From positions 1,267 to 65,266 of the forward strand of contig CAINDA010000065.1 in NCBI GenBank assembly GCA_903847205.1: a stretch of 64,000 nt of DNA. Direction: 5' to 3'. The notes under the pieces are model-generated. The model was not told the DNA's origin. It was given only the letters and a program-made list of their open reading frames with translations, and searched no databases. The DNA is from an uncultured Bacteroidota bacterium (lineage in GTDB: Bacteria > Bacteroidota > Bacteroidia > 2-12-FULL-35-15). The position numbers were made by a program, and so were the translations under genes. Positions 26,005-44,707 of the stretch are shown here, in pieces; the first letter of the stretch is position 1; each line of letters starts with the position of its first letter.

Positions 26005-26020
26005 AAAAACAAAAGAAAAA

Positions 26021-26054
26021 CCCCATTCTTAGATAAGAATGGGGTTTTTCTTTT
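26021..26054. terminator. Bidirectional Rho-independent terminator between convergent genes
   Basis: 'ccccattctt-agat-aagaatgggg' forms a perfect 10-bp stem, flanked by an A-run upstream and a T-run downstream. Confidence 0.8.
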
Positions 26055-26072
26055 GCCTTTGTTTCAATAAAA

Positions 26073-26300
26073 TTATTTTTTCTCTTCTGCTTTAGCTGGT
26101 TCAGCAGGTTTTGCAGTTTCTACAGCTGTTTTAGCAACTGAATCCAATGCAGTACTCATACTTTGACTTGCAGCCTTAAATATAGAATCCATTTTTGCTG
26201 TTTCTGCTGCTTTTCTTTTTGCCTCTTCTGCTGCATTTGGTCCGCATGCAGTAATACTCAACATAGTTACCGCGAATAATAAGGTCAATAGTCTTTTCAT
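26073..26300 (-). CDS. Small lipoprotein (Ala/Lys/Glu-rich)
   Basis: Starting at the internal Met gives 'MKRLLTLLFAVTMLSITAC', a lipobox. The mature region is low-complexity and A/K/E-rich. Confidence 0.45.
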   Translation of the reverse strand: MKRLLTLLFAVTMLSITACGPNAAEEAKRKAAETAKMDSIFKAASQSMSTALDSVAKTAVETAKPAEPAKAEEKK

Positions 26301-26751
26301 TTCGTTTGTTCGTTTTATTTGATTAATTAATTTTTGTATGTGATTGCAAAGGTAATAATAAATCAATAGCAGCATAATTCATTACTCGATTTATTACAAG
26401 ACAAATGAATCGAAACTAAATTTTGAAAATACACCTGTTTATTTGAAATCGGTTCGTTTAATTGGAATCCTTGTTTATGAAAGAGATATATATTAAATTG
26501 TTAATTTTATTTATCTAAAAATAAAAAAAATGGAGCGCATAAGTTTAGTTTCATTTAGAGTTTAAACCTGCAGCGGAACTTTATTTCTCAAAAATTAAAA
26601 ACGAAAATATTGATGCTGAAAAAGTATTTTCAAAAAGGGATTTTTTCTTTTTTGCAGTATGAATAAAAGCCCAAAAGCAGAACATGAACAAATATTAATA
26701 TTATTATTTCAAATTTTATTATATCTTCGCACAATACTAAATGCGGATACT

Positions 26752-27225
26752 ATGAATAAAAACTTACAACTTTTTATTTTACTTTTTGTCCTGTTTTTTT
26801 CTTCTCCTGCTAAAGTCAATGCCCAAAATAATTCTGATTGGCAGCCTATTTATTTAACACCTGGGGGAGGAAATATGGTTGACAGCGTTGAAGCTTTTTT
26901 TCAGGTAAATTCCTGTAATGGCGATGGCGTTGTTTTTATTAAATTTATTAATCATTCTTCCCACCTTGTGAAAATTGAATGGTATGATGGATTGTTCACA
27001 CAGGAACTTAAATGGATCAAGAAAGAACTTCCTGCCGATGAAAAATCATTAACTCTTCCTCCTAAAACAACTGCCGAAGGAGGATGCATTAATTCTGCTA
27101 ATGTTGCTGGCAATGCTGGAACTGTTTATCCGCAGCTCCTTGTCTCATTAAAAAATTTTTCTGTTGATAAAAATGAAATCAAACGATATTCGGCTTCCCG
27201 GATAAATATCATCGCCTCGCGTTAA
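26752..27225 (+). CDS. Small secreted protein, paralog 1 of a two-member family, located upstream of the first giant adhesin gene
   Basis: Starting at the internal Met gives the signal peptide 'MNKNLQLFILLFVLFFSSPAKVNAQ'. It aligns with the ORF at 32598-33062, sharing 'EAFFQ', 'FIKFINH', 'EWYD', 'FTQE.KWIKKE' and 'KRYSAS'. Confidence 0.55.
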   Translation: MNKNLQLFILLFVLFFSSPAKVNAQNNSDWQPIYLTPGGGNMVDSVEAFFQVNSCNGDGVVFIKFINHSSHLVKIEWYDGLFTQELKWIKKELPADEKSLTLPPKTTAEGGCINSANVAGNAGTVYPQLLVSLKNFSVDKNEIKRYSASRINIIASR

Positions 27226-27241
27226 TAAAAAAATATAGGAT

Positions 27242-30200
27242 ATGAAAACTAAAATTTTTACAGCACTATTCCTTATATTTATTTTAAGCTCTTCGGTTTT
27301 TTCCCAGACTGTTAATGTTACCATTGTTTATAACGGCGCTCAGGGATTGGGGTGCTGCGATGTATGCGGTACGGATTATACATGTATAAACAATATCGGG
27401 GGATGCGGGACTAATGCTCCTTGTTTGAACAGAACTTTTTCTGACCCGGTGCCGGCAGGAAACATAATTACCGGAGTAACTGTTTCTGATTTTGCCGTTT
27501 GCGGAGGATCAAGCCCGGTTTCCAATGTGTCTTCGTCCATCAATGGTGTAGCAATTGGTACAACAGCTGTTCAGGGTGGCTGCCAGTGCGGCGGATGTAA
27601 TAATCAGGTTATGGCAAATACTTTTCCTTGCCCAACGGGACTTTCAAGTTATAATTACGGAGGCAACAATACATTCAGACTTTGCCCTAACGGCGATTAT
27701 TGTATTCAAAGAGCAGTTATAACTTTTACTTATACCCCTGTTTCTATTGCACCTACCGCAGCAACTGCAAACCCTAATCCATCATGCGGAGGCGCTGTAA
27801 CGTTAAATAAGGTTGGCGGTTCTCTGGGTTTTGGTGCAGTCTGGAAATGGTACTCAGGATCTTGCGGAGGCGTACTAGAGGGAACAGGCGCATCCATTGT
27901 TGTTACGCCATCGGCAACAACTACTTATTTTATTAGAGCTGAAGGCGGTGGCTGTGGTACCACACCCTGCGTCAGCGTTACTGTTACAATGAATACTCCT
28001 TCAACTGCGCCAGTCTCCGCCACAGCAACGCCAGCCGTAACATGCGGCGGTGCAACAACATTAAATGTAACCGGCGGTTCATTAGGAACCGGTGCATCAT
28101 GGAAATGGTATTCCGGGTCTTGTGGCGGGGTGTTTGAAGGAACAGGTTCTACTTTGTCTGTGTCGCCCTCAGTAAATACAACTTATTACGTAAGGGCCGA
28201 AGGTACCTGCAATACCACTCTTTGTGTTTCGGTTGCAGTAACTGTAAATCCGGTTCCTTTTGCTATTGCTACACCATCCAGCGCCGCATTTTGTTCTGGT
28301 GGAACCACCGCAATTGCATTAAGCAGTTTTACTCCTGGTACAACTTTTGCCTGGACTATTTCTCCATCAGGAATCACAGGAGCATCGGCCGGTTCAGGAG
28401 CATCAATAGCGCAGACATTAACAAATTCAGGAGCATCTCCCGATTCTGTTGTTTATACTATTACTCCTACAGCGAACAGCTGTATTGGAACCCCGATAAA
28501 CGTTAGAGTGGTTGTAAATCCCGTTCCAGTGGCATCTATTACACCGGCCGGTGCCCAAACAATCTGCGCCGGAATAGTTCTTGGCCTTGCTTTAAACAGC
28601 AACGCGGCAGGAACAACCTTCACCTGGACTGTTGTATTAACAAATGCCGCAGGAGGGCATAATGGCTCAGGAACTGCAATTACTGATACTTTAACTGCTA
28701 CTGGTGGAGGGAGCGGTACTGCAATCTATACCATAACTCCAACTGCTAACGGATGTCCGGGCATTCCAATTTCGGATACAATAACAGTTAACCCCGACCC
28801 AGGTGCTACAGCTGCTGCCAGTCCCATTGTATCAACGATTTGTTCTGGAACAACAACTTCAATATCCTTAACCAGTGTTGCGATAGGTACAATATTTACA
28901 TGGACTGTAACTCAAACTGGAGCTAACGGAGCAACTCCAGGTACTGGAGCAACTATTGCGCAGACATTAACAACCGGGACAATACCATCAACAGTTGTTT
29001 ATACAATTACTGCGACTGCAAACGGCTGTACAGGAAATCAAATAACTTCCACATTAACTGTAAATCCAATTCCGGTTCTTACTGCAACTCCTGCATCGCA
29101 GACATTTTGTTCAGGAGGTACTACCGGAATTGCTTTATCAAGCAATACTGCGGGCACTACTTACTTTTGGTCAGCCAGTGAAACTGGTGTTACAGGTGCT
29201 GTTTTCGGGTCAGATACTTCTATTGTTCAGACATTATCCACAACCGGAATCACGGGCGGTACTGCAGTTTATACAATTACTCCAACAGCAAATGGATGTT
29301 CAGGGAATGCAGTCAATGTTACTATCACTGTAAATCACAGGGATAATGCATCTTTTGTTTATTCATCGGCAACTTACTGTCTGTCGGGAAATAATCCTAC
29401 TCCAATAATTACCGGACTCCCTGGTGGTGTTTTTTCAGCGGTTCCAGCTGGCTTGTTGATTAATTCTGCAACAGGGACAATCAACCTTGCCGGAAGTTCA
29501 CTTGGATCATATACATTAACTTATAGAACTAATGGCATTTGTCCTGATTCAAGCAGTATTACAATGACTATTGATAATTCTACTCCATTTGCGAATTTCA
29601 CTTATCCTGCTTCACCTTACTGCCAGAATGGAACTGATCCGTTCCCGGTTTTTGGTACTGGTGCAAGCGCAGGTGTTTTTACAGTGACCCCAATCGGCCT
29701 GGTATTTGATCATATTAATACCGGACAGATTGATTTATCAGCGAGCGCACCCGGCACCTATACTGTTACAAACCACATCCCTGCAAGCGGTAATTGCGAC
29801 CCGGTAGTTGCATCCTCAACAGTTACTATAACAGTTGCTGATAATGCTTCTTTTGTTTATACATCAGCAACCTATTGTCAGTCTGGAACGCCCCAGACAC
29901 CGGTTGTTACAGGGATTCCCGGCGGTGTGTTTTCAGCTGTGCCGGCAGGTCTTGCAATTAATCCATCAACCGGAACTATCACTTTATCAGGAAGTGCCTG
30001 GGGTTCTTACACGCTGTCTTATCTCACAAATGGTCCTTGTCCCAACACGAGTTCAATAACTATGACAATTGACAGCATAACACCTTCCGCAATTTTTACT
30101 TATGGAGCTGCTTCTTATTGTCAAAACGCAAATGATCCTTCGCCGATTTTTGGTTCTGGAGCAAGTGCAGGGATCTATTCCGCAACTCCGGCTGGTTTGG

Positions 30201-32395
30201 TATTTGTCCATGTTAATACCGGACAGATTGATTTATCTGCGAGTGCGCCTGGAACATACACAGTTACCAATACAATCCCGGCAAGCGGTTCATGTCTCGC
30301 ATTAACGGCAACAACAACTGTTGTTATCAGTCCATCCGATAATGCCTCATTTTCCTATACTTCAGCAACCTATTGCCAGTCTGGAACTAATCAAACACCT
30401 TCTATTACCGGTTTGCCGGGAGGAGTTTTTTCTGCTGTTCCGCCGGGCCTGGTAATTAACTCTGCCACAGGCATCATTAATCTGGCTGCAAGTGCCGTAG
30501 GATCATATACTCTTACCTATACAACAAACGGTTCCTGCTCTAATTCGAGCTCAATTATAATGACAATTGATAATACTACCCCATTTGCGAATTTCAGTTA
30601 TGCAGGCTCTCCCTTCTGTCAGAACACAGGTAACCCTTATCCTAGTTTTGGCCCGGGTGCAAGTGCCGGAATATTTTCAGCTGTCCCTGCCGGTTTAGTT
30701 TTTGTTCACGTTAATACGGGACAGATCAATTTATCAGCCAGTGCTCCGGGTACATATACTGTTACAAATACCATCCCTGCAAGCGGTTCCTGCCAGGCGG
30801 TAATTGCAACCACAACAATTGTGATAAATCCTGCGGATAATGCCTCTTTCTTTTATCCTTCTGCAACCTATTGCATATCAGGAACGCCTCAAACGCCCAC
30901 TATTACTGGTTTGCCGGGTGGTGTTTTCTCAGCGGTGCCGGCAGGATTATCAATTAATCCGGCAACCGGCACAATTACTTTGTCCACTTGCACTTTGGGG
31001 GCATATACGCTTTCTTATACAACTAACGGTAACTGTCCTGATACTAGTTCCATTACAATGACCATTACAAATACTACACCTTTACCTGATTTTACTTATT
31101 CGGGTTCGCCTTTCTGCCAGTCTGGGATTGATCCATATCCAATTTTTAGTGCTGGTGCCAGCGCAGGAATATTTTCAGCTGTTCCTTCAGGTTTGGTTTT
31201 TGATCATGTTAATACCGGGCAGATTGATTTATCATTAAGTGCCCCTGGCACATACACGGTAACTAATAACATTCCTGCGAGCGGTACATGCAGTGCAGTT
31301 AGTCATACGTATACTGTAATTATTAATCAGGCGCCTACAGCGATCGCCACACCTTCCTCTCAATCATTTTGCACCATCGGAACAACACCTGTCCCGCTGA
31401 CTATTGCGCTCACAAGTAATATACCTGGTACAACTTTTTCGTGGACAGTTACTCATTCTGGACTTAATGGAGTAACGCCAGGTTCTGGGTCTTCAATTAC
31501 CCAGACAATCTCGCTTACAGGAGCAGGTCAAGGTACAGCTTCATATACTATAACACCTAATGCGAATGGCTGTGTCGGTGCACCTACAATTATAACCGTA
31601 ACAGTTAACCCAAAACCTGTAATTGATACTGTGGCTTTAGTAATTCTGCCTGCAAACTGCGGCACCGCAACCGGCGCCATAACCGGTATAACGAATGTTT
31701 CAGGGCAGGCGCCTTTAACCTATCAATGGAAAGATTCGCTAGGTAATCCGGTCGGAAACAGTATTGATTTAAACAATGTAATTCCAGGCCGATATACTTT
31801 AACTGTTACCGATGGAAATAATTGCACAGTTTCTGCCGGCCCTGTGATCCTGCCTTCAACAACGGCGGTATTTGCTGCATTTACTCCAAATCCTTCCACC
31901 GGTGAAACTCCGCTTACCGTTAACTTTACTAATAACAGCTCCGGAGCAACTCATTATATCTGGCAGTTTGGTGATGGCCTTAATGATACATCATCTGCTT
32001 TAAATCCATCTCATGTTTATCTTCCGCTTGGGAAATTTACTGTTTGTTTGACTGCGATAAGTGCTGCTAATTGTATAGATACAGCTTGTTCAAAAATTGA
32101 TATTTATCTTAATTCAGTATTTGTGATCCCTAATATTTTTACTCCTAATGGCGATAATATTAATGATATGTTTACCGTGAAGGCAATAGGTCTGAAAACA
32201 ATGGATGCACAGATATTTAACCGCTGGGGCGAAAAAATGTACGAATGGCACACGACTAACGGAGGCTGGGATGGCTATACAGCCAGCGGTGTTGCTGCCT
32301 CGGAAGGGACTTATTATTTTATTATAAAAGCAAGCGGAATTGATGGGAAAGAATATTTTGAAAAAGGAAATTTCTCTCTTATCCGCGGCAAGTAA
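27242..32395 (+). CDS. Giant SprB-like cell-surface adhesin with T9SS type B C-terminal domain (1717 aa)
   Basis: Signal peptide, then a Cys-rich N-terminal head and more than 15 Ig-like ~80-aa modules of two alternating types ('…TITPTANGC.G.P…VTVNP' and 'DNASF.YSSATYC…GLPGGVFSAVPAGL'). An SprB-type repeat 'CGTATGAITGI…PLTYQWKD…TLTVTDGNNC' and a PKD-like segment follow. The CTD reads 'IPNIFTPNGDNINDMF…FNRWGEKMYEW…GNFSLIR'. Confidence 0.8.
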   Translation: MKTKIFTALFLIFILSSSVFSQTVNVTIVYNGAQGLGCCDVCGTDYTCINNIGGCGTNAPCLNRTFSDPVPAGNIITGVTVSDFAVCGGSSPVSNVSSSINGVAIGTTAVQGGCQCGGCNNQVMANTFPCPTGLSSYNYGGNNTFRLCPNGDYCIQRAVITFTYTPVSIAPTAATANPNPSCGGAVTLNKVGGSLGFGAVWKWYSGSCGGVLEGTGASIVVTPSATTTYFIRAEGGGCGTTPCVSVTVTMNTPSTAPVSATATPAVTCGGATTLNVTGGSLGTGASWKWYSGSCGGVFEGTGSTLSVSPSVNTTYYVRAEGTCNTTLCVSVAVTVNPVPFAIATPSSAAFCSGGTTAIALSSFTPGTTFAWTISPSGITGASAGSGASIAQTLTNSGASPDSVVYTITPTANSCIGTPINVRVVVNPVPVASITPAGAQTICAGIVLGLALNSNAAGTTFTWTVVLTNAAGGHNGSGTAITDTLTATGGGSGTAIYTITPTANGCPGIPISDTITVNPDPGATAAASPIVSTICSGTTTSISLTSVAIGTIFTWTVTQTGANGATPGTGATIAQTLTTGTIPSTVVYTITATANGCTGNQITSTLTVNPIPVLTATPASQTFCSGGTTGIALSSNTAGTTYFWSASETGVTGAVFGSDTSIVQTLSTTGITGGTAVYTITPTANGCSGNAVNVTITVNHRDNASFVYSSATYCLSGNNPTPIITGLPGGVFSAVPAGLLINSATGTINLAGSSLGSYTLTYRTNGICPDSSSITMTIDNSTPFANFTYPASPYCQNGTDPFPVFGTGASAGVFTVTPIGLVFDHINTGQIDLSASAPGTYTVTNHIPASGNCDPVVASSTVTITVADNASFVYTSATYCQSGTPQTPVVTGIPGGVFSAVPAGLAINPSTGTITLSGSAWGSYTLSYLTNGPCPNTSSITMTIDSITPSAIFTYGAASYCQNANDPSPIFGSGASAGIYSATPAGLVFVHVNTGQIDLSASAPGTYTVTNTIPASGSCLALTATTTVVISPSDNASFSYTSATYCQSGTNQTPSITGLPGGVFSAVPPGLVINSATGIINLAASAVGSYTLTYTTNGSCSNSSSIIMTIDNTTPFANFSYAGSPFCQNTGNPYPSFGPGASAGIFSAVPAGLVFVHVNTGQINLSASAPGTYTVTNTIPASGSCQAVIATTTIVINPADNASFFYPSATYCISGTPQTPTITGLPGGVFSAVPAGLSINPATGTITLSTCTLGAYTLSYTTNGNCPDTSSITMTITNTTPLPDFTYSGSPFCQSGIDPYPIFSAGASAGIFSAVPSGLVFDHVNTGQIDLSLSAPGTYTVTNNIPASGTCSAVSHTYTVIINQAPTAIATPSSQSFCTIGTTPVPLTIALTSNIPGTTFSWTVTHSGLNGVTPGSGSSITQTISLTGAGQGTASYTITPNANGCVGAPTIITVTVNPKPVIDTVALVILPANCGTATGAITGITNVSGQAPLTYQWKDSLGNPVGNSIDLNNVIPGRYTLTVTDGNNCTVSAGPVILPSTTAVFAAFTPNPSTGETPLTVNFTNNSSGATHYIWQFGDGLNDTSSALNPSHVYLPLGKFTVCLTAISAANCIDTACSKIDIYLNSVFVIPNIFTPNGDNINDMFTVKAIGLKTMDAQIFNRWGEKMYEWHTTNGGWDGYTASGVAASEGTYYFIIKASGIDGKEYFEKGNFSLIRGK

Positions 32396-32597
32396 TCTAA
32401 TACGCAGAAACTTTAATGGAAGCCATTAAAGCACTTTAAAATCATTATTTCGAAAATACAGCCTCTTTTCTGCAACCTTTTAGTTTCTTTTAGCGTCCTA
32501 AGTCAACAAGTGTGTTGATAAAATCGTAAGCGAGCGTGCAGGCTGTAATTTGTTTGTTTTGTATTTTGCCGTCTTACTAGTGCTAAATCTGTCTGCT

Positions 32598-33062
32598 ATG
32601 AAAAATAAATTACAACTTTTATTTTTATTCTTTATTCTGATCTTCTCTTCTGCCAATAGGATTTGCTCTCAAACAAATTCTAATTCTGAATGGCAGCTGA
32701 TAGGTCTTACCCTCGGTGGCAATAATATCTTGGATGGTGTTGAAGCTTTTTTTCAACTCGGAACCTGCAGCGGGGAAGATGTGATTTACATAAAATTCAT
32801 CAATCATACTGCAGCTCCTGTAAAATTAGAATGGTACGATGCCGTATTTACCCAAGAACAAAAATGGATAAAGAAAGAGCAGGAAGCTGATAAAAAATCA
32901 CTTAAGATTGCAGCCAATAAAGAAGATAAGGGAGCGTGTTCTGTTTCCTCGTCAGACAGCTATTCTTCAGAACTAATCGTTAAACTGAAAGATTTTGTTT
33001 CGGATAAAAAAAATTTCAAACGTTATTCGGCTTCTAATTTAACAGTTACTGCAGTTCAATAA
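32598..33062 (+). CDS. Small secreted protein, paralog 2, located upstream of the second giant adhesin gene
   Basis: Starting at the internal Met gives the signal peptide 'MKNKLQLLFLFFILIFSSANRICSQ'. It is a paralog of the ORF at 26752-27225. Confidence 0.55.
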   Translation: MKNKLQLLFLFFILIFSSANRICSQTNSNSEWQLIGLTLGGNNILDGVEAFFQLGTCSGEDVIYIKFINHTAAPVKLEWYDAVFTQEQKWIKKEQEADKKSLKIAANKEDKGACSVSSSDSYSSELIVKLKDFVSDKKNFKRYSASNLTVTAVQ

Positions 33063-33072
33063 CCCTAAACTA

Positions 33073-36000
33073 TTGAATATGAAAAATAAAATTTTTATAA
33101 GCCTATTTTTGTTAGTTGCTGCAAGCTGTTCGGTTTTTTCACAAACAGCAAACACCACAATCACTTATGGAGGCTTTCAAGCTTGCGGAGGCTGTGACCT
33201 TTGCGGAGCAGACTATTGGTGTGTTAACTCTCAGCCCAGTTACTGCGGTAATACTGCGGCCTGCAGAACGGACAACTTTTTTGACCCTGTACCGGCAGGT
33301 AATATAATTACTGGTGTAAGCATAGTATTCTGGGCTGAAGATGGATGGCCGGGGGCATGTTCAAGTGTAAATACGTCAATAAATTCTGCAGTAATCGGAA
33401 ACGGGGCAGTGTCTTCCTTCAGTCAGTGTTCTACCTGTACCAGTCTCACATTGAGTAATTCTTATTCCTGTCCTACAGGTTTGCCAGGTTACAATTACGG
33501 AGGTAATAATGGATTTACACTCTGCCCTAATGGCTCTTTTTGTATTCAAAGAGCTGTTATTACTTTTACTTATACTGTGGCATCAGTAGCTCCGACAGGA
33601 GCAACAGCAAGCCCTAACCCGATTTGCTCAGGGGCTGTTACATTGAACAGGATTGGCGGTTCACTTGGTACCGGTTCATCATGGAATTGGTACTCCGGCT
33701 CTTGCGGAGGAACATTCGTAGGAACTGGTTCTTCTATTAGCGTTTCGCCCGCATCAACCACAACTTATTATGTTAGAGCTTCCGGCGGATGCGGTACCAC
33801 TGCATGTGCGAGTGTGACTGTTACAGTGAATACACCTTCTTTACCACCTACATCTGCAACAGCAAGCCCAAATCCAACATGCGGGGGTGCAACTACCTTG
33901 ACGGAAGTGGGCGGGACACTTGGTTCTGGTGCAGTTTATAACTGGTACACTGGAAGCTGCGGCGGTTCTTTAGTCGGTACTGGAGCCAGTATTAGTGTGT
34001 CTCCATCATCTACAACTATCTATTATGTATTAGCGTCAGGCACATGTAATATAACTCCATGCGCAACGGTTACGGTAACAGTTAATTCTTTTTCAACGGC
34101 CCCTTCTTCAGCATCTGCAAGTCCAAGCACTGTGTGTGCAGGAGTTGCTACAACCTTAACTGAAACTGGCGGTTCCTTAGGTGCGGGAGCCATTTATAAT
34201 TGGTACTCGGGAAGCTGCGGGGGGACCTTAGTTGGAACTGGGCCCTCCATTTCGGTTAGCCCGTCATCTACTACAAACTATTATGTAAGGGCGCAGGGAA
34301 CATGCAATACTACTGCTTGTGCTATGGTTACAGTAACTGCAAACCAAGTTCCTTTTGCAACTGCAACGCCGTCGGCTCCCACTATATGTTCCGGAAATGC
34401 TACTGCCATTGTTTTGAATAGTTTTACACCGGGCACTTCATTTTCCTGGACTGTTACTCAGTCAGGGGTTACGGGTGCTGTGGCAGGTAATGGTGCTACT
34501 ATAGCCCAAACATTGTCGGTTTTAGGAACAACTCCAGGTACTGCCACATATACTGTTACCCCTGTCGCTGCAGGCTGTATAGGTTTTCCAATTACCGTTG
34601 TAGTTACTGTCAATCCAATTCCCGTTGCCACGGCGACTCCTGCAACTCAAACAATTTGTTCTGGGGCTGCCCCTGCTATAGTATTAACAAGCAATATTAC
34701 AGGTACATTATTTAATTGGACTGTTGTTCAGACAGGAGTGTCAGGAGCCAGCACTTCAAGCGGTTCGACAATTGCGGATGTGTTAACAGCGACGGGAGTA
34801 ACTGCAGGAACTGCTGTTTATTCGGTTACGCCCGTAGCGGGCGGATGTCCGGGAATTCCGATTACGGTTACTATTACTGTTAATCCTTCTCCAATAGCAA
34901 TTGCAACACCATCATCACAGACATTTTGTTCAGGGAGCACAACCGGCATAGTTTTAACAAGCAATGTTGCAGGTGCATCGTTTACTTGGACGGTGGTTCA
35001 AACTGGCGTTTCAGGCGGAGCTCCAGGAACTGGCCTCACAATTGCGGATGTTTTAAACACTACCGGCTCATCTGCAGGTACTGCAGTTTATACTATAACA
35101 CCATCAGCAAATACCTGCCCAGGAACACCAATTACAGTTACCATAAATGTGAATAAAATGGATTCAACTTCATTTTCTTATTCAGCAACTACTTTTTGCC
35201 AGACTGGAGTTGATCCTGCACCCACAATCACTGGTTTACCCGGAGGAGTATTTTCCTCAACAGCAGGTTTAGTTTTTATTAGTACTGCAACCGGATTAGT
35301 CGATTTAAGTTTGAGCACACTTGGTACCTATATTATCACTTACGCAACAAATGGTATTTGTCCTAATACCGGAACTCAGACTTTAACTATTACTGGTGCT
35401 CCTGCGGCGGGCTTCAGTTATCCAGCTTCACCTTTCTGCCAATTCGCAGCAAATCCTTCTCCGACTTTTGCGGCTGGTGCATTTGGCGGTGTTTTTTCAT
35501 CATTGCCTGCGGGTTTATCTTTTGTAAATACAAATACTGGAGTAATAAATTTATTAACAAGCCTTCCTGGAACGTATACTATAAAAAATGTAATTGCAGC
35601 AAGCGGGGGCTGTGCAGCTGACAGCGCTACTTCAACTGTTACAATAAATCCCACTCCCATTGCGACTGCCACTCTTTCTCCAGATACTATCTGTTCAGGT
35701 ACTGCGACTTCAATTGTTTTAGGCAGTTCTTTAGCCGGTACAAGCTACGGCTGGACTGTTGTTCAGACTAATGCTGTTGGAGGTGCAACAGGAGGCGGTC
35801 CGACAATAATTCAAACTCTCACAACTACTGGAGCTGGGGCCGGAACTGTGGTATATTCCATCACACCGACTGTCGGAACCTGTATAGGAAGCCCAATCAA
35901 AGATACGGTTACGGTTAACGCTATTACAATTGCTACAGCAACACCTCCTACTCAGGCGTTTTGTTCGGGCGGTACTACAGCTATTGCATTAACGGGGAAT

Positions 36001-39000
36001 ATTCCAGGAACAACTTTTACCTGGGCAGCCAGTGAGTCTGGAGTTACAGGTGCATTGTTTGGTTTCGGCAATACAATAGCGCAAACTTTAACAGCGGCCG
36101 GGACCAGCCCTGGAACTGCGGTTTATACGGTAACACCATCTTCAAACGGATGTTTAGGAAACGGTATAAATGTTACAATTACTGTAAATCCAGCTGACAA
36201 CTCTTCATTCAATTACACTTCAGCGACCTACTGCCAGTCCGGAAGTCCTCAATCACCTTCAATTACTGGTTTACCCGGGGGAGTTTTTTCTTCAGTACCT
36301 GCAGGCTTGTCAATTAATGCTTCTACTGGAACTATTAATTTATCGACTAGTGCTTTAAATGCATATACACTTACCTATACAACAAATGGAATCTGCCCGA
36401 GTTCGACTTCCATTATTATGACAATTACCAATAGTAATCCGAGTGCTAACTTCAGTTATCCTGGTTCTCCTTTCTGCCAAAATGGAACCAATCCTCACCC
36501 AGTTTATACAGCAGGATCGAGTGCAGGAATTTTTTCTGCGGTTCCAGCAGGTTTGACATTTGTTAACCTGAACACCGGCGAAATTAACTTGGGATTAAGT
36601 GCACCTGGGGTTTATACCGTTACAAATACGATACCTGCGAGCGGGACATGCCTCGGGACAAGTGCTGTAACAACAGTTACCATTACACCTTCGGATAATG
36701 CGGCTTTTTCTTATACTTCAGCAACCTACTGTATTTCCGGACCAAATCAGAGTCCGACAATTTCTGGGCTGCACGGCGGAACTTTTCATTCAAGCCCTGC
36801 AGGTCTGGCTATTGATACAACCACCGGGGTTATTAGTCTTTCAACGAGTGTTTTGGGCACATACGTACTTAGTTATTCTACACACGGACCCTGCCCGAAT
36901 ACAAGTTCAATACTTATGACAATTGACAGCGTATCTCCATCAGGTGATTTTCATTTTTCTAACGTTTCTTATTGTCAAAATGCAAGCAATCCTTCTCCTG
37001 TTTTTAATTCAGGTTCAAGTGCAGGTTCATTTTCTTCAACTCCGTCAGGCTTGGTTTTTGTACAAATCAATACAGGGCAGATTGATTTAGCAGCCAGCGG
37101 TCCCGGCACCTATATCGTTACAAATACTATTCCAGCCAGCGGTAACTGTTCAGCATCCGTTACTACAGCTACTGTAACCATAACACGTTTGGATAATGCA
37201 TCATTTGTGTATTCTTCAGCTACCTACTGCACAACCGGCCCAAATGAAACACCAACAATCACTGGTCTTCCAGGCGGCGTATTTACATCAACGCCTGTCG
37301 GGTTATTGATCAATCCGGCAACAGGAACAATAAATTTAGCCGGAAGCGCTGTTGGTTCATACATCCTTTCTTATACTACAAATGGAGCCTGCCACAATAC
37401 TAGCCATATAACAATGACTATTACAACCAATACGGTTTTTGCAAGTTTCAGTTATCCCAGCTCTACGTATTGCCAGAATGGAACTAATCCTTTCCCGATT
37501 TTTGCTGCCGGAGCAAGTGCTGGTGTATTTACAGTTACACCTATCGGTTTGGCATTTGTTCATATTAATACAGGACAGGTTGATTTGGCAGGAAGTACGC
37601 CAGGTACCTATACTGTTACGAATACAATTCCGGCCAGCGGGGGCTGTGCAGCAGTGGTTGCTACCAGCACTATTACTATTTCTCCTTCGGATAATGCATC
37701 GTTTTTCTATCCTTCTGCAACCTACTGTACCACAGGAACACCTCAAACCCCTACAATTACGGGACTTGCGGGAGGTACGTTTTCATCAACACCGGCAGGC
37801 TTAAACATTAATCCGGCAACGGGAGTGATTACTTTAACGTCGAGTGCATTGGGAGTATATACTTTAACCTATACAACAAACGGCTCTTGTCCGAATTCAA
37901 CTTCAATAACGATGACCATTACCAATACTACACCATTTGCTAATTTTGGTTATCCGGCTTCTCCATTCTGCCAGAATGGAGGAAATCCTTTTCCGACTTT
38001 CGGACCGGGAGCAAGTGCGGGGATATTTACATCCGCTCCGGCAGGATTAGTATTTGTGCAGGTTAATACGGGTGAGATAGATTTGACTGCTTGTACTCCC
38101 GGCACATACACTGTTACCAATACTATACCTGCAAGCGGTACCTGCGGTGCTGTAACAGCAACAACTACGGTTGTTATCGGTGCGTCCGACAATGCATCAT
38201 TTGTATATTCTTCTGCAACTTATTGTTTAACGGGCCCCAATCAGACGCCTGTAATTACTGGTTTGCCGGGTGGTGTTTTTTCATCAATTCCTCCGGGCTT
38301 ATCTGTTAATCCGGCAACCGGAGCTATTGATTTAACAACAAGTTCAGTGGGAGCCTATACTCTCAGGTATTCAACAAACGGTGCCTGCCCAAATACCAGC
38401 TCCATTGTAATGACAATTACCAACAGCCCTAATTTGGCAGGATTCAGCTATGCGGGTTCGCCATACTGCCAAAATGCGGCTAACCCTTATCCGACATTTG
38501 TTTCCGGTGCAAGCGCTGGATTCTTTACAGCTTCGCCTGCAGGGCTGGTATTTATACATGTGAATACGGGACAGCTTAATTTATCTGCAAGCACACCCGG
38601 AACTTATACGGTTACTAATACAATTCCCGCTGGCGGCGGATGTGCTGCAGTTACCGCAACAAGTACTGTTACTATAACAGCTGCAGATAATGCTGCCTTT
38701 ACCTACCCATCGGCAACCTACTGTACTTCAGGTAACCCTCAGACACCAACAATTACCGGCTTGCTGGGAGGTACGTTCTCAGCAATACCTATCGGCTTAG
38801 CGCTTAATCCGTCTACCGGAACTATTAATTTAGCACTAAGCGCCCTTGGTGCGTATACGCTTACTTACACAACTAACGGTGTATGCCCGAATTCAAGTTC
38901 GATAACGATGACAATTACAAATACAACACCGTTTGCAAGTTTCAGCTATCCTGCATCACCTTTCTGCCAGCTTGGAAATAACCCTTTCCCGACTTTTGGT

Positions 39001-40239
39001 CCGGGAGCAAGCGCAGGAACATATACTGCAGCGCCGGCAGGGTTAGTATTTGTAAATGTTAATACCGGCCAGATTAACTTAGCATTAAGTGCACCTGGCA
39101 CTTACACCGTTACTAATACTATTCCGGTAAGCGGAACCTGCGGTGCAGTGAGTGCAACATCAACTGTAATTATACATGGAGCGCCAACTGCTATTGCAAC
39201 TATTGTATCGCATAATATCTGCACAGGATCATCTGCTTCAATTGCTTTAACAAGTTCAACAAGCGGAGCAAATTTTACATGGACAGTGATTGAAACAGGA
39301 TTGACTGGTGCTTCATCAGGAACAGGGGCAAGTATTTCGCAGGTATTAACATTAACTCCTCCCGGTACTGTTACCGGCAGTGCAGTTTACACTATTACTC
39401 CTTCGGCTAACGGATGCATAGGCTTACCGATAACTGTGCCTGTAACCCTTCATCCGATACCCAAAGTGGATACTTCTGCAGTTGTTATAACACCTGCAAA
39501 TTGCGGAAGTGAAACGGGTAAGATATCTGGTATTTCTATGTCCATCGGGCAGAGTCCTTTTCATTATGTCTGGAAAGATTCGGCGGGTACAGTTGTCGGC
39601 GACAGCGCTGTTTTAAGGAATGTTGCTCAGGGAAAATATACGCTGACTGTTACTGATTCAAGCGGCTGTTCAATTTCTACCGGTATATTTGTTGTAACTT
39701 CTACCGCCCCTGTAGTTGCTGCGTTTACTTCAAATCCTATAACCGGCGAAACTCCTTTAACGGTTAATTTTACCAACGCCAGCTCAAACAGTGCAGTTAA
39801 TTATATATGGCATTTTGGTACAGGTGATTCATCTATAGCTGTGAACCCAACTTATACTTATGTTCCTTTGGGCAATTTTATTGTCTGCCTGAAAGCTGAT
39901 AACGGTTTTGGATGCTGGGATACAGCCTGTGCTAAAATTGATGTGTTTATAAATTCGGTGTTTATAATTCCAAATGTATTTACTCCTAATGGCGACGGTG
40001 TTAATGACGTATTTACTGTACATGCTGTGGGGTTGAAAACTTTAGACGCAGAAGTATATAACCGCTGGGGAGAAAAGGAATTCGAATGGCATTCAACTAA
40101 TGGGGGATGGGATGGTTATACTGCAAGCGGGGTGCCTGCGCCTGCCGGCACATATTATTACATAATAAGCGCAACAGGAATAGATGCTAAGAAATACGCT
40201 GAAAAAGGTGCATTTACTTTGATAAGGGCAGGTAAATAA
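33073..40239 (+). CDS. Giant SprB-like cell-surface adhesin with T9SS type B C-terminal domain (2388 aa), paralog of the gene at 27242-32395
   Basis: It has the same architecture as the first adhesin: a Cys-rich head, about 25 Ig-like modules of the same two types, an SprB-type repeat 'CGSETGKISGI…PFHYVWKD…TLTVTDSSGC', a PKD-like segment and the CTD 'IPNVFTPNGDGVNDVF…YNRWGEKEFEW…GAFTLIR'. Confidence 0.8.
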   Translation: MNMKNKIFISLFLLVAASCSVFSQTANTTITYGGFQACGGCDLCGADYWCVNSQPSYCGNTAACRTDNFFDPVPAGNIITGVSIVFWAEDGWPGACSSVNTSINSAVIGNGAVSSFSQCSTCTSLTLSNSYSCPTGLPGYNYGGNNGFTLCPNGSFCIQRAVITFTYTVASVAPTGATASPNPICSGAVTLNRIGGSLGTGSSWNWYSGSCGGTFVGTGSSISVSPASTTTYYVRASGGCGTTACASVTVTVNTPSLPPTSATASPNPTCGGATTLTEVGGTLGSGAVYNWYTGSCGGSLVGTGASISVSPSSTTIYYVLASGTCNITPCATVTVTVNSFSTAPSSASASPSTVCAGVATTLTETGGSLGAGAIYNWYSGSCGGTLVGTGPSISVSPSSTTNYYVRAQGTCNTTACAMVTVTANQVPFATATPSAPTICSGNATAIVLNSFTPGTSFSWTVTQSGVTGAVAGNGATIAQTLSVLGTTPGTATYTVTPVAAGCIGFPITVVVTVNPIPVATATPATQTICSGAAPAIVLTSNITGTLFNWTVVQTGVSGASTSSGSTIADVLTATGVTAGTAVYSVTPVAGGCPGIPITVTITVNPSPIAIATPSSQTFCSGSTTGIVLTSNVAGASFTWTVVQTGVSGGAPGTGLTIADVLNTTGSSAGTAVYTITPSANTCPGTPITVTINVNKMDSTSFSYSATTFCQTGVDPAPTITGLPGGVFSSTAGLVFISTATGLVDLSLSTLGTYIITYATNGICPNTGTQTLTITGAPAAGFSYPASPFCQFAANPSPTFAAGAFGGVFSSLPAGLSFVNTNTGVINLLTSLPGTYTIKNVIAASGGCAADSATSTVTINPTPIATATLSPDTICSGTATSIVLGSSLAGTSYGWTVVQTNAVGGATGGGPTIIQTLTTTGAGAGTVVYSITPTVGTCIGSPIKDTVTVNAITIATATPPTQAFCSGGTTAIALTGNIPGTTFTWAASESGVTGALFGFGNTIAQTLTAAGTSPGTAVYTVTPSSNGCLGNGINVTITVNPADNSSFNYTSATYCQSGSPQSPSITGLPGGVFSSVPAGLSINASTGTINLSTSALNAYTLTYTTNGICPSSTSIIMTITNSNPSANFSYPGSPFCQNGTNPHPVYTAGSSAGIFSAVPAGLTFVNLNTGEINLGLSAPGVYTVTNTIPASGTCLGTSAVTTVTITPSDNAAFSYTSATYCISGPNQSPTISGLHGGTFHSSPAGLAIDTTTGVISLSTSVLGTYVLSYSTHGPCPNTSSILMTIDSVSPSGDFHFSNVSYCQNASNPSPVFNSGSSAGSFSSTPSGLVFVQINTGQIDLAASGPGTYIVTNTIPASGNCSASVTTATVTITRLDNASFVYSSATYCTTGPNETPTITGLPGGVFTSTPVGLLINPATGTINLAGSAVGSYILSYTTNGACHNTSHITMTITTNTVFASFSYPSSTYCQNGTNPFPIFAAGASAGVFTVTPIGLAFVHINTGQVDLAGSTPGTYTVTNTIPASGGCAAVVATSTITISPSDNASFFYPSATYCTTGTPQTPTITGLAGGTFSSTPAGLNINPATGVITLTSSALGVYTLTYTTNGSCPNSTSITMTITNTTPFANFGYPASPFCQNGGNPFPTFGPGASAGIFTSAPAGLVFVQVNTGEIDLTACTPGTYTVTNTIPASGTCGAVTATTTVVIGASDNASFVYSSATYCLTGPNQTPVITGLPGGVFSSIPPGLSVNPATGAIDLTTSSVGAYTLRYSTNGACPNTSSIVMTITNSPNLAGFSYAGSPYCQNAANPYPTFVSGASAGFFTASPAGLVFIHVNTGQLNLSASTPGTYTVTNTIPAGGGCAAVTATSTVTITAADNAAFTYPSATYCTSGNPQTPTITGLLGGTFSAIPIGLALNPSTGTINLALSALGAYTLTYTTNGVCPNSSSITMTITNTTPFASFSYPASPFCQLGNNPFPTFGPGASAGTYTAAPAGLVFVNVNTGQINLALSAPGTYTVTNTIPVSGTCGAVSATSTVIIHGAPTAIATIVSHNICTGSSASIALTSSTSGANFTWTVIETGLTGASSGTGASISQVLTLTPPGTVTGSAVYTITPSANGCIGLPITVPVTLHPIPKVDTSAVVITPANCGSETGKISGISMSIGQSPFHYVWKDSAGTVVGDSAVLRNVAQGKYTLTVTDSSGCSISTGIFVVTSTAPVVAAFTSNPITGETPLTVNFTNASSNSAVNYIWHFGTGDSSIAVNPTYTYVPLGNFIVCLKADNGFGCWDTACAKIDVFINSVFIIPNVFTPNGDGVNDVFTVHAVGLKTLDAEVYNRWGEKEFEWHSTNGGWDGYTASGVPAPAGTYYYIISATGIDAKKYAEKGAFTLIRAGK

Positions 40240-40261: not shown

Positions 40262-40298
40262 AAAACATCAGCAGTTTATACTGCTGATGTTTTTTTGT
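40262..40298 (+). terminator. Rho-independent terminator
   Basis: 'aacatcagcag-tttata-ctgctgatgtt' is followed by a T-run, 20 nt after the stop of the giant gene. Confidence 0.8.
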
Positions 40299-41233: not shown

Positions 41234-42835
41234 ATGAAACAAAGGTACTTCAAATTTTATTTATTTGTCATTCTTTCCGGATGCTTGGTAAACGGTTCTT
41301 ACAGCCAATGCGCCACTACTAATTTTGCCGGGAATTTCACTCAAAATACTTCTGCATTTCTTTCGGGAATCTATATTGTTGCCGGTACATTTTATGTTCC
41401 GGCAGGAGTAACAATATTTGTTCAGCCCTTTGCAACGGGTAGCTGCGGTAAATTTGAAGTGCATGCAAACAAAATAATTATTGAAGGGATAATAAACGGT
41501 GATTTTGCCGGATATTCCGGAGGTGCAGGCGGGAGCGGAGGCATAGCTGTTACCAGCTTAACAGGCGATGTTGTTGCGCTTAATACCTGCAGCAATGCTG
41601 ATTTAACTGGTCAGGTAACTGTGCAGGGAGGTAAAGGAGGAATTACTGGAAATGGTGTAGGAGGTGGTATTTGCGGAGGAAATGGATCAGATGGTTCTGG
41701 GCCCAAACAGCAATGTTTATCAACTGATGAAGCTGGAATGATAGGTAGCGGCGGCGGCGGCGGAGGTGGAGGAGGAGGGAGTTACGGCGGTATTGCATCT
41801 TACGGCGGCGACGGCGGCGACGGCACTGATTTTTATCAGGCAACAACTGTTAATGTTTCAACTGGATTTGTTGTAGTTGCTGGCCCCGGCGGTTTGGGCG
41901 GAGTCGCCGGTCTGCCATACGGGACAGCTGCGGGCACCGATATTGAATTAGGTGCAGGAGGTGCAGGAGGCGGAGGGGGAGCACGTTCATTTGATGTAGG
42001 ATTAACTGGAAATGAAGGAGGCGCGGGTGGCGGAATGGTTAAACTTTTTGCAACTGATACAATAAAAGTGAGCGGAACAGTCACCGTCAACGGGAAAAAT
42101 GGGCAGACTGGCGGAGATGGAGGAAACGGAGGCCAATCTCCAAAATGCTGCACCGACCCCTGTGATGATTGTGGTGAGACAACTCTTTCATGCGGTGCAG
42201 GCGGTGGCGGAGGAGCAGGCGGAGGTTCTGGAGGCGGGATATATATAGAAACACAGAACTATGCTTCTATTACCGGAACACTCAGTTCAAAAGGAGGTAA
42301 CGGAGGAGTAGGCGGATTGAAAGGCATGGGAGCCAGCTGTGCATATACTGGGGGTGTTTTCTGCGGCAACGATCAAACAATTGTCAGCGGTGACGGAGAT
42401 GCCGGCAAAAAAGGCGGAGGAGGAAGCGGCGGACGCATTAAAATATTTTCTCCGGACTGCTTCAACTCAATTATAACCCCCGTTAATATTATTTCAGGCG
42501 GCACAGGAGTGGATTCTGCTTCAGCAGGCACCTATTTTTTAGGCTGTCTTACAACAACAATTGATGAGCTCTCTTATCATACTTTCGACCTTGTAGTTTA
42601 TCCAAACCCGGCACAAAATGAAATAGTGCTTAAATTTAAAAACAATATATTGGCCAATAGCGTAGGCTGTTTTATCATTTATGATATCAGCGGACGTGAA
42701 ATTAAACAAGTGGTGTGTAAATTAAATCAGGATTCAGAGCAGACAATTATTATTTCTGATTTAAGCAAAGGCATCTACACCATTTATCTTACTGCTGAAG
42801 GAAAAAAACTTCATCAAAAATTCATAAAAAACTAA
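41234..42835 (+). CDS. Glycine-rich secreted protein with T9SS type A C-terminal sorting domain
   Basis: Signal peptide. Long GGxGG tracts run through the mature region. The CTD reads 'LVVYPNPAQNEIVLKF…IYDISGREIKQV…GIYTIYLTAEGKKLHQKFIKN'. Confidence 0.65.
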   Translation: MKQRYFKFYLFVILSGCLVNGSYSQCATTNFAGNFTQNTSAFLSGIYIVAGTFYVPAGVTIFVQPFATGSCGKFEVHANKIIIEGIINGDFAGYSGGAGGSGGIAVTSLTGDVVALNTCSNADLTGQVTVQGGKGGITGNGVGGGICGGNGSDGSGPKQQCLSTDEAGMIGSGGGGGGGGGGSYGGIASYGGDGGDGTDFYQATTVNVSTGFVVVAGPGGLGGVAGLPYGTAAGTDIELGAGGAGGGGGARSFDVGLTGNEGGAGGGMVKLFATDTIKVSGTVTVNGKNGQTGGDGGNGGQSPKCCTDPCDDCGETTLSCGAGGGGGAGGGSGGGIYIETQNYASITGTLSSKGGNGGVGGLKGMGASCAYTGGVFCGNDQTIVSGDGDAGKKGGGGSGGRIKIFSPDCFNSIITPVNIISGGTGVDSASAGTYFLGCLTTTIDELSYHTFDLVVYPNPAQNEIVLKFKNNILANSVGCFIIYDISGREIKQVVCKLNQDSEQTIIISDLSKGIYTIYLTAEGKKLHQKFIKN

Positions 42836-42841
42836 TTTCTG

Positions 42842-44707
42842 GTGATGCGAAAACTGATTGTTTTTCTTAGTGTGATTTTTTATTCTTTCTTCTGTCCGGA
42901 CATTTTCAGCCAGGGCAGGTCTGTTCCTACTATAACACCCTGCCTGAAACCTTTTTACCATGGTGTTGCTTCAGGGGATCCATTAACTGACCGGGTAATT
43001 CTCTGGACCAGAGTAACACCTGATATTAATCAAAACGGACCCATCATAGTTTATTGGAAAATAGCAACAGATACTAATATGATTAATCTCGTTGGGGACG
43101 GAACTGTAATTGCAGAATCCACCTCGGATTATACAGTTAAAATAGATGCTATAGGATTATTACCCAACACATTTTATTTTTATCAATTCTCAACTGGGGG
43201 GTATTCCTCCGTAATAGGGCGCACGAAAACCGCACCAACAGGCAATGTTGACAGCCTGCGTTTTGCAGTTGTATCATGTGCTAATTATGAATCAGGGTTT
43301 TTCAATGTTTATAAAAGTTTAAGGCTCCGAAACGATTTTGATGCGGTTCTTGCTCTGGGAGATTATATTTATGAATATGAATCAGGTGAATATGGTCCTA
43401 ATCCTGTTGCAGACAGACAATGGCTGCCGACGAATGAAATTTTAACTTTAGCTGATTACCGTGCTCGTTATTCGACTTACCGGTTAGATGATGATTTAAG
43501 AAATTTGCACCAGCAGTTTCCTTTTATTATAGTTTGGGATGATCATGAATTCGCTGATAATGCCTGGATGAATGGTGCCGCAAATCATCAGCCATGGGAA
43601 GGCAGCTGGGCTGTGCGTAAGGCAAGTGCTAAGGAAGCTTTTTTTGAGTGGCTGCCAATACGTGTTACCGGTACAAATGATCCTTACCAGGTTTTTAGAG
43701 ACATTAAGTATGGAAACCTCGCAGAATTTATAGTGTTGGATACGCGTATTCACGGGCGTGATGAGCAGGATGGAACAACAGGTGCTACTGTAAATGATCC
43801 AAACCGCCAAATGCTGGGCACAGACCAGTTTACCTGGTTAGGAGATAGGCTCGATCAAAGCACTGCCCGCTGGAAAATGCTTGTTCAGGAGGTAATGATG
43901 GCGCCATTGACAGTAGGGGGCTACGCCGTTAATGAGGATCAGTGGGATGGATACCCTGCAGAAAGAGAAAGAGTTTTTAATCATATACTTTCTCATAATA
44001 TCAAAAATGTTGTTGTTCTCACTGGCGACATTCATACATCCTGGGCAAATGACCTGCCCACGGCAACCTATAACAGCTCTAACGGTGCTGGATCTGCCGG
44101 TGTTGAGTTTGTTGGGCCGAGTGTTACTGCCCCGCCCGAACATTTTATTACCGGCACTGCAACAGCAATTATGGCTGTGAACGGGCATATCAAATATGCT
44201 GAGTTATATCACCATGGTTATATGATTTTGGATATTAGAAGAACCCGCACTCAGTGTGATTGGTATTATGTGAACACAGTTGATTCGGCTTCTTCATCAT
44301 TTTATTACGGCGCTTCGTTTTATACAAATTATCTTACCAGATTTTTAGTGGAAGGCAACGCTGCGGCCGTTCCGCGCGCCTCGGTTTTTAAATATCAAAC
44401 ATCCACTTGCCCCCATTACATAACGACGGGGACTAAAAGCAGTGATGAGCTGCCTGTTTTTTTAAGTATTTATCCCAATCCTGCTTCTGACAGAATATTT
44501 ATGCAATACTATACAGCTGATAAGGGAATAGTTGATATTAAATTATATGATATGGGTGGAAAGGTAGTGCAGTCTTTTGATCAGGGGGAAAAAGATAAAG
44601 GAGTTTATCAAACTATACTGTGCATCGCTGCTTTGCCGAATCAAACATATTACGTTGAAATAAATTCTCCTGGAGGATCGTCAAGAACAAAAATTGTAAA
44701 AAATTAA
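42842..44707 (+). CDS. PhoD-like phosphatase (metallophosphatase) with T9SS type A C-terminal sorting domain
   Basis: Contains 'FRFAVVSCANYESGFFNVYKSL', 'ALGDYIYEYE' and 'VWDDHEFADN', which are PhoD-family signatures. The CTD reads 'LSIYPNPASDRIFMQYY…IKLYDMGGKVV…YYVEINSPGG…KIVKN'. Confidence 0.75.
   Translation: MMRKLIVFLSVIFYSFFCPDIFSQGRSVPTITPCLKPFYHGVASGDPLTDRVILWTRVTPDINQNGPIIVYWKIATDTNMINLVGDGTVIAESTSDYTVKIDAIGLLPNTFYFYQFSTGGYSSVIGRTKTAPTGNVDSLRFAVVSCANYESGFFNVYKSLRLRNDFDAVLALGDYIYEYESGEYGPNPVADRQWLPTNEILTLADYRARYSTYRLDDDLRNLHQQFPFIIVWDDHEFADNAWMNGAANHQPWEGSWAVRKASAKEAFFEWLPIRVTGTNDPYQVFRDIKYGNLAEFIVLDTRIHGRDEQDGTTGATVNDPNRQMLGTDQFTWLGDRLDQSTARWKMLVQEVMMAPLTVGGYAVNEDQWDGYPAERERVFNHILSHNIKNVVVLTGDIHTSWANDLPTATYNSSNGAGSAGVEFVGPSVTAPPEHFITGTATAIMAVNGHIKYAELYHHGYMILDIRRTRTQCDWYYVNTVDSASSSFYYGASFYTNYLTRFLVEGNAAAVPRASVFKYQTSTCPHYITTGTKSSDELPVFLSIYPNPASDRIFMQYYTADKGIVDIKLYDMGGKVVQSFDQGEKDKGVYQTILCIAALPNQTYYVEINSPGGSSRTKIVKN

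Follow-up and report, generated by a model that had tools for sequence, protein, structure and literature searches.

Small secreted proteins encoded directly upstream of giant type B cargo of type IX secretion accompany the head of the giant in uncultured Bacteroidota

Introduction

What does a small secreted protein contribute when its gene stands directly upstream of a giant type IX secretion system (T9SS) cargo gene, and which part of the giant does it accompany? The question is raised by a 64,000-nucleotide (nt) stretch of DNA from an uncultured Bacteroidota bacterium (contig CAINDA010000065.1, positions 1,267 to 65,266 of the forward strand; hereafter the window, cited in its own numbering), in which a gene for a secreted protein of ~150 amino acids (aa) precedes the gene for a giant T9SS cargo protein, and the pair is then repeated in tandem. 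An earlier note, made from the sequence of the window alone, had described a tandemly duplicated two-gene module and had suggested that the small proteins may be chaperones, anchors or specificity factors of an SprB-like adhesin. All four open reading frames (ORFs) lie where that note had placed them, and both the small genes and the giant genes are pairs of paralogs. The question bears on how giant type B T9SS adhesins survive the periplasm and on what specifies their distal tips.

Results

The small proteins form a new family of secreted proteins

The two small proteins of the window, both with signal peptides, align over their full length with 48% identity and 66% similarity (E 4e-45), and have the stretches VEAFFQ, IKFINH, EWYD, FTQE.KWIKKE and KRYSAS in common. 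The shared motifs were thus largely as first described (EAFFQ, EWYD, FTQE.KWIKKE and KRYSAS), the exception being FIKFINH, which is exact in copy 1 only and reads YIKFINH in copy 2. Neither protein has a match in Pfam or NCBIfam, and searches of these collections with 89 family members found no family model either, only scattered single matches, all at E>0.002; the family profile found nothing below E 0.3 among the sequences of the PDB. The supposition that the small proteins do not resemble SprC, SprD, SprF or PorP is borne out by these searches, which gave no match to PorD or to any other annotated family either. Homologues were few when a single sequence was used in a word-indexed search (4 proteins only), and an exhaustive search with a profile, run over 1.84 billion cluster representatives, returned 236 of them at E≤1e-3, 97 at E≤1e-10. 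Both window copies match the family profile (A2) at E 2e-46 and 1e-50. The best 150 of the 236 representatives are all standalone proteins of 81–206 aa, with no fusion to a giant among them. As judged by these searches, the family is new and unannotated and is found across uncultured Bacteroidota (236 representative clusters). A literature search of incomplete coverage returned no paper on the family or on a head-specific partner of type B cargo; a scan of viral contigs for the family gave no locus, and tblastn against plasmids, with the small protein and the head of the giants as queries, gave no match.

Of the 89 aligned members, 87 have a signal peptide that ends in [A/S/G]-Q and only eight have a lipobox-like Cys near the cleavage site; the median mature protein is 121 aa long. 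Conservation is highest at W30, E47, N67, N69 and W77 (N67 in 89/89, W77 in 88/89 and W30 in 87/89 members), and the two cysteines C55 and C112 are present in 86/89. The signature of the family, which both window copies fit, is a precursor of ~140 aa with a signal for signal peptidase I followed by Q, and a core of the form W...G.N...GVEA...C...KF.N.N...W...C. No T9SS C-terminal domain (CTD) and no match to an outer-membrane protein family was found among the 89 members. These features point to soluble proteins exported by Sec and cleaved by signal peptidase I, which would reside in the periplasm and carry one disulfide.

Using the same alignment, AlphaFold2 gave a confident beta-sandwich (predicted local distance difference test, pLDDT, 90.2; predicted template-modelling score, pTM, 0.78), whereas the model built from 5 sequences only was poor (pLDDT 63.6). 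Structure prediction had been suggested as a check on the small protein, and its outcome is a well-defined fold with no match in the PDB at E≤1e-3 by Foldseek, i.e., no close solved analogue. The weaker matches were to DUF1425/YcfL, Cj0090, ApaG, SadB, MATH domains, transglutaminase domains and BsuPI; among them, SadB (4c47) and the MATH domains of SPOP scored E 0.017–0.08, and the Bacillus subtilis proteinase inhibitor BsuPI (3isy) E 0.04. No potempin structure was present among the best 50 matches.

The giants are type B cargo with an unannotated Cys-rich head

Both giants exceed the curated cut-offs of two models, CHU_C (64.4 and 63.9 bits; cut-off 27) and TIGR04131 for the T9SS type B sorting domain (50.8 and 44.9 bits; cut-off 35), and on these scores are classed as T9SS type B cargo, with a C-terminal sorting domain of ~85 aa. 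Their signal peptides, read by eye from the translations, are MKTKIFTALFLIFILSSSVFS and MKNKIFISLFLLVAASCSVFS, each followed by QT. In giant 1 the signal peptide is followed by a Cys-rich head, four Ig_7 domains, five PKD_5 domains, unannotated repeats of ~95 aa, a PKD domain and the CHU_C/type B CTD; giant 2 has the same architecture with additional Ig_7/PKD_5 and repeat units. The two are 65% identical over the C-terminal 1038 aa and 50% identical over the N-terminal part. The description of the giants as SprB-like can be kept for the secretion class and for a giant fibre of Ig-like repeats; the SprB repeat itself (PF13573) is absent from the Pfam matches of both window giants (E≤0.1), and occurs in some partner giants elsewhere. 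Pfam gave no peptidase domain for the giants, and no tandem DNA repeats were found in their genes.

In Flavobacterium johnsoniae, nine of 12 type B substrates have a PorP/SprF gene directly downstream, and the orphan type B substrates rely only on the shared shuttle Fjoh_1677 (PMC12618676). No window ORF of at least 100 aa matches PorP_SprF, and no PorP/SprF gene adjoins any partner giant in the loci examined, so that these giants count as orphan type B substrates by the definition of that study. The window contains six further T9SS cargo genes, two of type B (CHU_C; 91–1959 and 7425–8525) and four of type A (Por_Secre_tail; 8939–10816, 41234–42835, 42842–44707 and 52736–54694), which include a PhoD phosphatase and an FG-GAP protein; no gene of the small family or of PorP/SprF adjoins any of the six.

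The Cys-rich head begins right past the signal peptide (cleaved between VFS and QT in giant 1) and, in our alignment of the domain (A5), follows the pattern ...GCCxVCGxDYWC...DPVPAGN...ING...YxYGGxN...C.QR...TY, with ~14 conserved Cys over ~150 aa. It has no Pfam match even at E≤10 and no match in the PDB. The head of giant 2 is a variant with GFQACGGC, as in loci L014, L015 and L027. Across the aligned heads the positions without variation are occupied by Cys, Gly, Tyr, Pro, Asn and a single Asp, with no invariant His, Ser or Glu, and from this composition the domain looks structural or lectin-like. Homology between the small protein and the head was considered and ruled out (hhalign probability 0.3%). 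A Cys-rich head is present in 17/17 giants that stand behind small genes of the clade of the window proteins (clade I) in the loci analysed. In a distant clade (A4; L017, L018 and L022), the partner giants share another, Gly-rich head. The two unannotated head domains are likely to be the functional tips of the fibres.

The small-then-giant order recurs across unrelated contexts

The loci came from a scan of a genome collection, from look-ups of exact sequences and from a metagenome scan with the distant clade, which gave one locus; each was annotated with the family hidden Markov model and with BLAST probes made of the first ~155 and the last 95 residues of the giants. Among the 27 family genes with a visible downstream neighbour, the next gene encodes a large CHU_C/type B CTD protein in about 24. 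Co-occurrence of the two genes, which the earlier note had proposed to examine, is therefore the usual state of the family. The giant is the next gene at both modules of the window, in L001, twice each in L008–L011, in L013, L014 and L015, twice in L024, in L026, L027, L017, L018 and L022, and in two JGI contigs, where P0067 is followed by a 1418-aa protein with SprB repeats, PKD domains and CHU_C, and P0166 by a 1129-aa CHU_C protein. At some of these loci (e.g., L018, L022, L015 and the second giants of L008–L011 and L024) the giant is truncated by the contig edge, so that no CTD can be seen.

The start of the giant is usually 8–40 nt downstream of the small gene, with outliers of 62 nt and of 268 nt, the latter at the second small gene of L008. 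Flanking genes vary from locus to locus, giving at least 10 distinct genomic contexts, and the identity of the paired family members to the window protein falls as low as 22%. Tandem small-giant-small-giant arrays like that of the window are also found in L009, L010, L011 and L024. Since the small-then-giant order recurs in many Bacteroidota contigs, the pairing is not due to chance. A conserved third gene of the module was sought and rejected, the flanks being unrelated housekeeping genes. In several metagenome-assembled genomes (L001:3-9836 and L024:1-9736, and also L008, L010 and L011), a type B giant of 5.5 thousand residues immediately precedes the first small gene; the N-terminus of these upstream giants, and the gene upstream of them, lie beyond the sequence covered.

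The family follows the head of the giant and not its secretion signal

Partner giants that differ in stalk and CTD retain the head. The giants of L014, L015, L026 and L027 have the Cys-rich head (E 1e-29 to 1e-36), while the stalks in L014, L026 and L027 differ, with PKD_6 or SprB repeats, and the CTDs visible in these three are 28–41% identical to those of the window giants. The CTDs of the two unlinked type B proteins of the window are 35–44% identical to those of the window giants, so that partner CTDs are no closer to them than CTDs that have no small gene at all; by this comparison we rejected the possibility that the small protein tracks a subclade of the CTD. At L017 two giants have CTDs that are 88% identical, and the family gene precedes only the one with the Gly-rich head. 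Taken together, the retention of heads on differing stalks and CTDs and the contrast within L017 indicate that the family follows the head and not the secretion signal.

The second CHU_C giant of this locus (L017:4587-8111), which has a different head, is itself preceded at a distance of 12 nt by a 140-aa secreted ORF (L017:4152-4574). This ORF was considered as a family member and rejected, being unrelated to the family. A wider grammar of a small secreted protein followed by a giant type B cargo, served by several unrelated small families, is suggested.

Organization of the two modules in the window

The features of the locus are listed in Table 1. The spacing of 16 nt between small gene and giant, as first reported for pair 1, is correct. 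For pair 2 the reported 10 nt apply only if giant 2 starts at TTG 33073; from ATG 33079 (MKNKIF...), which is the start that aligns with giant 1, the gap is again 16 nt. Small copy 1 starts at ATG 26752, as backed by its homologues and by the signal peptide, and the public gene call for it (P0001, 188 aa, from 26659) is overlong.

Table 1. Coordinates of the two small-giant modules and their flanking signals in the window.
Feature	Position	Strand	Description
Small secreted protein, copy 1	26752..27225	+	157 aa; signal peptide MNKNLQLFILLFVLFFSSPAKVNA, followed by Q, then predicted beta-sandwich of ~130 aa; conserved C55 and C112
Giant T9SS type B cargo 1	27242..32395	+	1717 aa
Cys-rich head of giant 1	27305..27760 (approximate bounds)	+	~150 aa with ~14 conserved Cys; unannotated
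Perfect 9-bp inverted repeat	32411..32431	+	CTTTAATGG-AAG-CCATTAAAG; 16 nt past the stop of giant 1; read from the sequence
Small secreted protein, copy 2	32598..33062	+	154 aa
Giant T9SS type B cargo 2	33079..40239	+	2386 aa from ATG 33079; alternative TTG 33073 (2388 aa)
Cys-rich head of giant 2	33142..33610 (approximate bounds)	+	57% identity to the giant 1 head
Intrinsic-terminator-like hairpin	40264..40296	+	CATCAGCAG..CTGCTGATG and T run; 25 nt past the stop of giant 2; read from the sequence

Giant 1 is followed by small gene 2, and giant 2 by a convergent DinB gene. The inverted repeat between the modules is a possible weak terminator, although the consensus scan did not call it, and the ~200-nt spacer 3' of it could give room for a second promoter; a scan for sigma-70-type promoters, with 45 sites against 37 expected, gave no guidance. 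The hairpin past giant 2 is read as the mark of the end of the two-module unit. Comparison of small copies 1 and 2 gave a ratio of nonsynonymous to synonymous substitution rates (dN/dS) of 0.12 with dS saturated, which indicates that the duplication is old and that both copies are constrained.

The giant genes (window 28000–40000) have a G+C content of 43–46%, against ~36–38% upstream and 39% just downstream. This probably reflects a composition rich in Gly, Ala, Thr, Ser and Pro; alternatively, it may reflect a foreign origin.

Three further features of the window were recorded. A perfect hairpin with a 20-bp stem, flanked by T runs on both strands (26009–26056), sits between an S41 peptidase gene and a convergent 100-aa ORF (26073–26375), and looks like a bidirectional terminator. 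The ORF at 18793–21003 (736 aa) combines a urea-transporter domain (residues 15–314) with an M23 peptidase domain (415–504) in an unusual fusion. The reverse strand at 55555–58161 encodes an 868-aa protein with two AAA+ modules and AAA_lid_6 domains, in a CbbX/EccA-like architecture.

Discussion

A tentative model for the small protein

In our tentative model, the small protein would serve the head of its cognate giant as a dedicated periplasmic escort or masking partner. Each module would be a bicistronic unit with the small gene first. After Sec export and processing by signal peptidase I, the small protein would stay in the periplasm as a disulfide-stabilised beta-sandwich of ~120 aa. The giant, 1700–2400 residues long, would have to cross the same compartment before leaving by the T9SS through its type B CTD, with the head at the distal tip. 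Being translated first from the shared transcript, the small protein could bind the Cys-rich head (in other clades, the Gly-rich head) while this is still periplasmic, and could maintain it in a soluble, correctly oxidised or non-adhesive state up to the hand-over of the fibre to the translocon; it would remain behind at export. A periplasmic partner of the head is made plausible by three precedents: the periplasmic chaperone SkpA is essential for export of SprB (PMC10994853), potempins are small cargo-specific partners encoded directly upstream of the T9SS KLIKK peptidases (PMC9890683), and SadB, encoded directly upstream of SadA, is needed for its efficient surface display (PMC3953254). Where PorP/SprF helpers recognise the C-terminal signal only, the small family would be a candidate second, head-specific class of cargo partner. 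Of the roles suggested earlier, that of an anchor is unlikely for a soluble protein of this size that has neither lipobox nor CTD and that goes with the head, not with the CTD.

Several observations weigh against a head-specific escort. The structural matches of the small protein are generic sandwiches, with template-modelling scores (TM) of 0.3–0.4. Correlations between identity matrices do not discriminate between head and CTD (r 0.85 for small protein versus head and r 0.90 for small protein versus CTD), and the small proteins that go with the heads most similar to that of giant 1 are not those closest to small protein 1 of the window, so that strict co-divergence of small protein and head is not seen. 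In the second module of L008, the N-terminus of the giant is of a third type. Nor is the association obligatory in either direction: the last small gene of L001 and the small gene of L012 are orphans, followed by a convergent MORN-repeat gene; the distant member P0097 adjoins recR on three contigs; and a giant with a Cys-rich head in L028 has no family gene upstream. Unlinked occurrence, which the earlier note had named as the finding that would speak against a cognate pair, is thus seen in a minority (P0097 and the orphan copies), and most members stay linked. The orphan copies of L001 and L012 are 83% identical with a dN/dS of 0.23, which indicates that they are still under selection, and across all comparisons, orphan copies included, dN/dS is 0.12–0.30, a sign of purifying selection that counts in favour of the model.

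The giant of L028 (with SprB repeats and CHU_C) is split into ORFs of 190 and 1593 aa by a frameshift at C6/G6 homopolymers (L028:2130-2190), probably an assembly error. A free-standing head protein was considered here and rejected, the homopolymer frameshift lying within one gene.

Other explanations of the pairing

The linkage and the head tracking apply equally to a small protein that binds the folded head, piggybacks on it through the T9SS and joins the distal adhesive tip as a subunit. The small protein has no export signal beyond Sec, and its conserved W30, E47, N67, N69 and W77 are of the aromatic and polar kinds that would be typical of ligand- or sugar-binding faces. Such a co-exported tip subunit is nevertheless unlikely: we know of no description of piggyback export for the T9SS, fusion to the giant would be a simple route to a permanent tip and never occurs among the best 150 of the 236 representatives, and orphan copies persist where there is no giant to carry them.

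Gene order and size also recall the potempin/KLIKK pairs, in which a small ORF lies directly upstream of its cargo gene, is co-transcribed with it and is cargo-specific (PMC9890683). By analogy, the small protein could be an inhibitor or immunity protein that neutralises an activity of the head harmful to the producer, be it enzymatic, lytic or self-glycan binding. The small gene and the head-coding 5' end of the giant gene act as a cassette on differing stalks, the orphan small genes are under purifying selection as orphan immunity genes would be, and the weak match to BsuPI is of this kind. We hold a potempin-like function to be improbable all the same, as neither the head nor the rest of the giants matched an enzyme or toxin family, the invariant residues of the head include none of His, Ser and Glu and give it a structural or lectin-like look, and the small family shares neither the lipobox nor the barrel folds of the potempins (see below).

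A role in targeting would place the small protein at the other end of the giant, where it would aid recognition of the CTD or hand-over to a shared PorP/SprF-type shuttle, in place of the missing cognate porP/sprF. All partners with a visible C-terminus are type B CTD proteins, and the lack of a PorP/SprF gene beside any of these giants, against nine of 12 type B substrates in F. johnsoniae, is consistent with this. We give it little credence, since the family does not follow the relatedness of the CTDs, at L017 it is an unrelated small ORF that stands before the giant with the 88% identical CTD, the other two type B cargo genes of the window have no such neighbour, and the orphan substrates of F. 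johnsoniae need only the shared shuttle Fjoh_1677 (PMC12618676).

The copies of P0097 beside recR on three contigs, the orphans under selection and the head giant of L028 that has no small gene would all be accommodated if the two proteins were not directly coupled, the small protein having an independent periplasmic role (e.g., glycan binding) and being merely co-transcribed or hitch-hiking with the giants. This, too, we find hard to credit: an order with gaps of mostly 8–40 nt that recurs in at least 10 unrelated contexts, among proteins down to 22% identity, is very unlikely to arise unless selected. Finally, the small gene and the head-coding 5' end might form a mobile, toxin-immunity-like cassette, with the Cys-rich or Gly-rich heads as contact-dependent effectors or recognition modules at the tips of the T9SS fibres, the small proteins as their neutralisers and the orphans as protection against neighbours, a highly improbable reading that, if true, would amount to the first system of head-specific immunity or self-recognition linked to type IX secretion.

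Comparison with known systems

The escort model can be set beside four known systems. Potempins PotA–E of Tannerella forsythia (PMC9890683) are likewise small (98–132 residue) secreted beta-proteins encoded directly upstream of, and co-transcribed with, specific T9SS cargo, with several tandem pairs per genome and with orphan copies. They differ in being outer-membrane lipoproteins with a lipobox and with OB folds or eight-stranded barrels, whereas the small family is a predicted beta-sandwich with a Cys near the cleavage site in 8/89 members; they inhibit peptidases with type A-like KLIKK CTDs, whereas the cargo here consists of giant type B repeat fibres with no detectable peptidase; and they have no sequence match, and no fold match in the top 50, to the small family.

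In the SadB-SadA pair of Salmonella (PMC3953254), a small envelope protein with a MATH-like beta-sandwich is again encoded directly upstream of a very large adhesin. Unlike the small proteins studied here, SadB is a trimeric, coiled-coil-containing lipoprotein of the inner membrane that serves type Vc secretion in Proteobacteria, and it has only weak structural similarity (TM ~0.3) and no sequence similarity to them.

PorP/SprF and the sprC-sprD-sprB-sprF operon of F. johnsoniae (PMC12618676; PMC9143113) also provide cargo-specific accessory genes beside type B giants, in cognate pairs that are duplicated many times per genome. Here the differences are that PorP/SprF proteins are outer-membrane beta-barrels, encoded downstream and recognising the CTD, whereas the small family is soluble, ~120 aa long, encoded upstream and does not track the CTD, and has no PorP_SprF match. 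SkpA (PMC10994853), the periplasmic chaperone of the extended T9SS translocon, likewise has specific importance when a giant type B adhesin, SprB, is exported; it is, however, a Skp homologue of general function, helical and trimeric, which belongs to the core of the translocon, is not linked to cargo and has an unrelated fold.

By analogy of arrangement the module appears most like the potempin/KLIKK and SadB/SadA pairs; its small protein has a fold unrelated to theirs, and compartment signal and cargo class also differ. An upstream, cargo-specific accessory gene is a known arrangement; what is new at this locus is the family of small proteins and the head domain that it accompanies.

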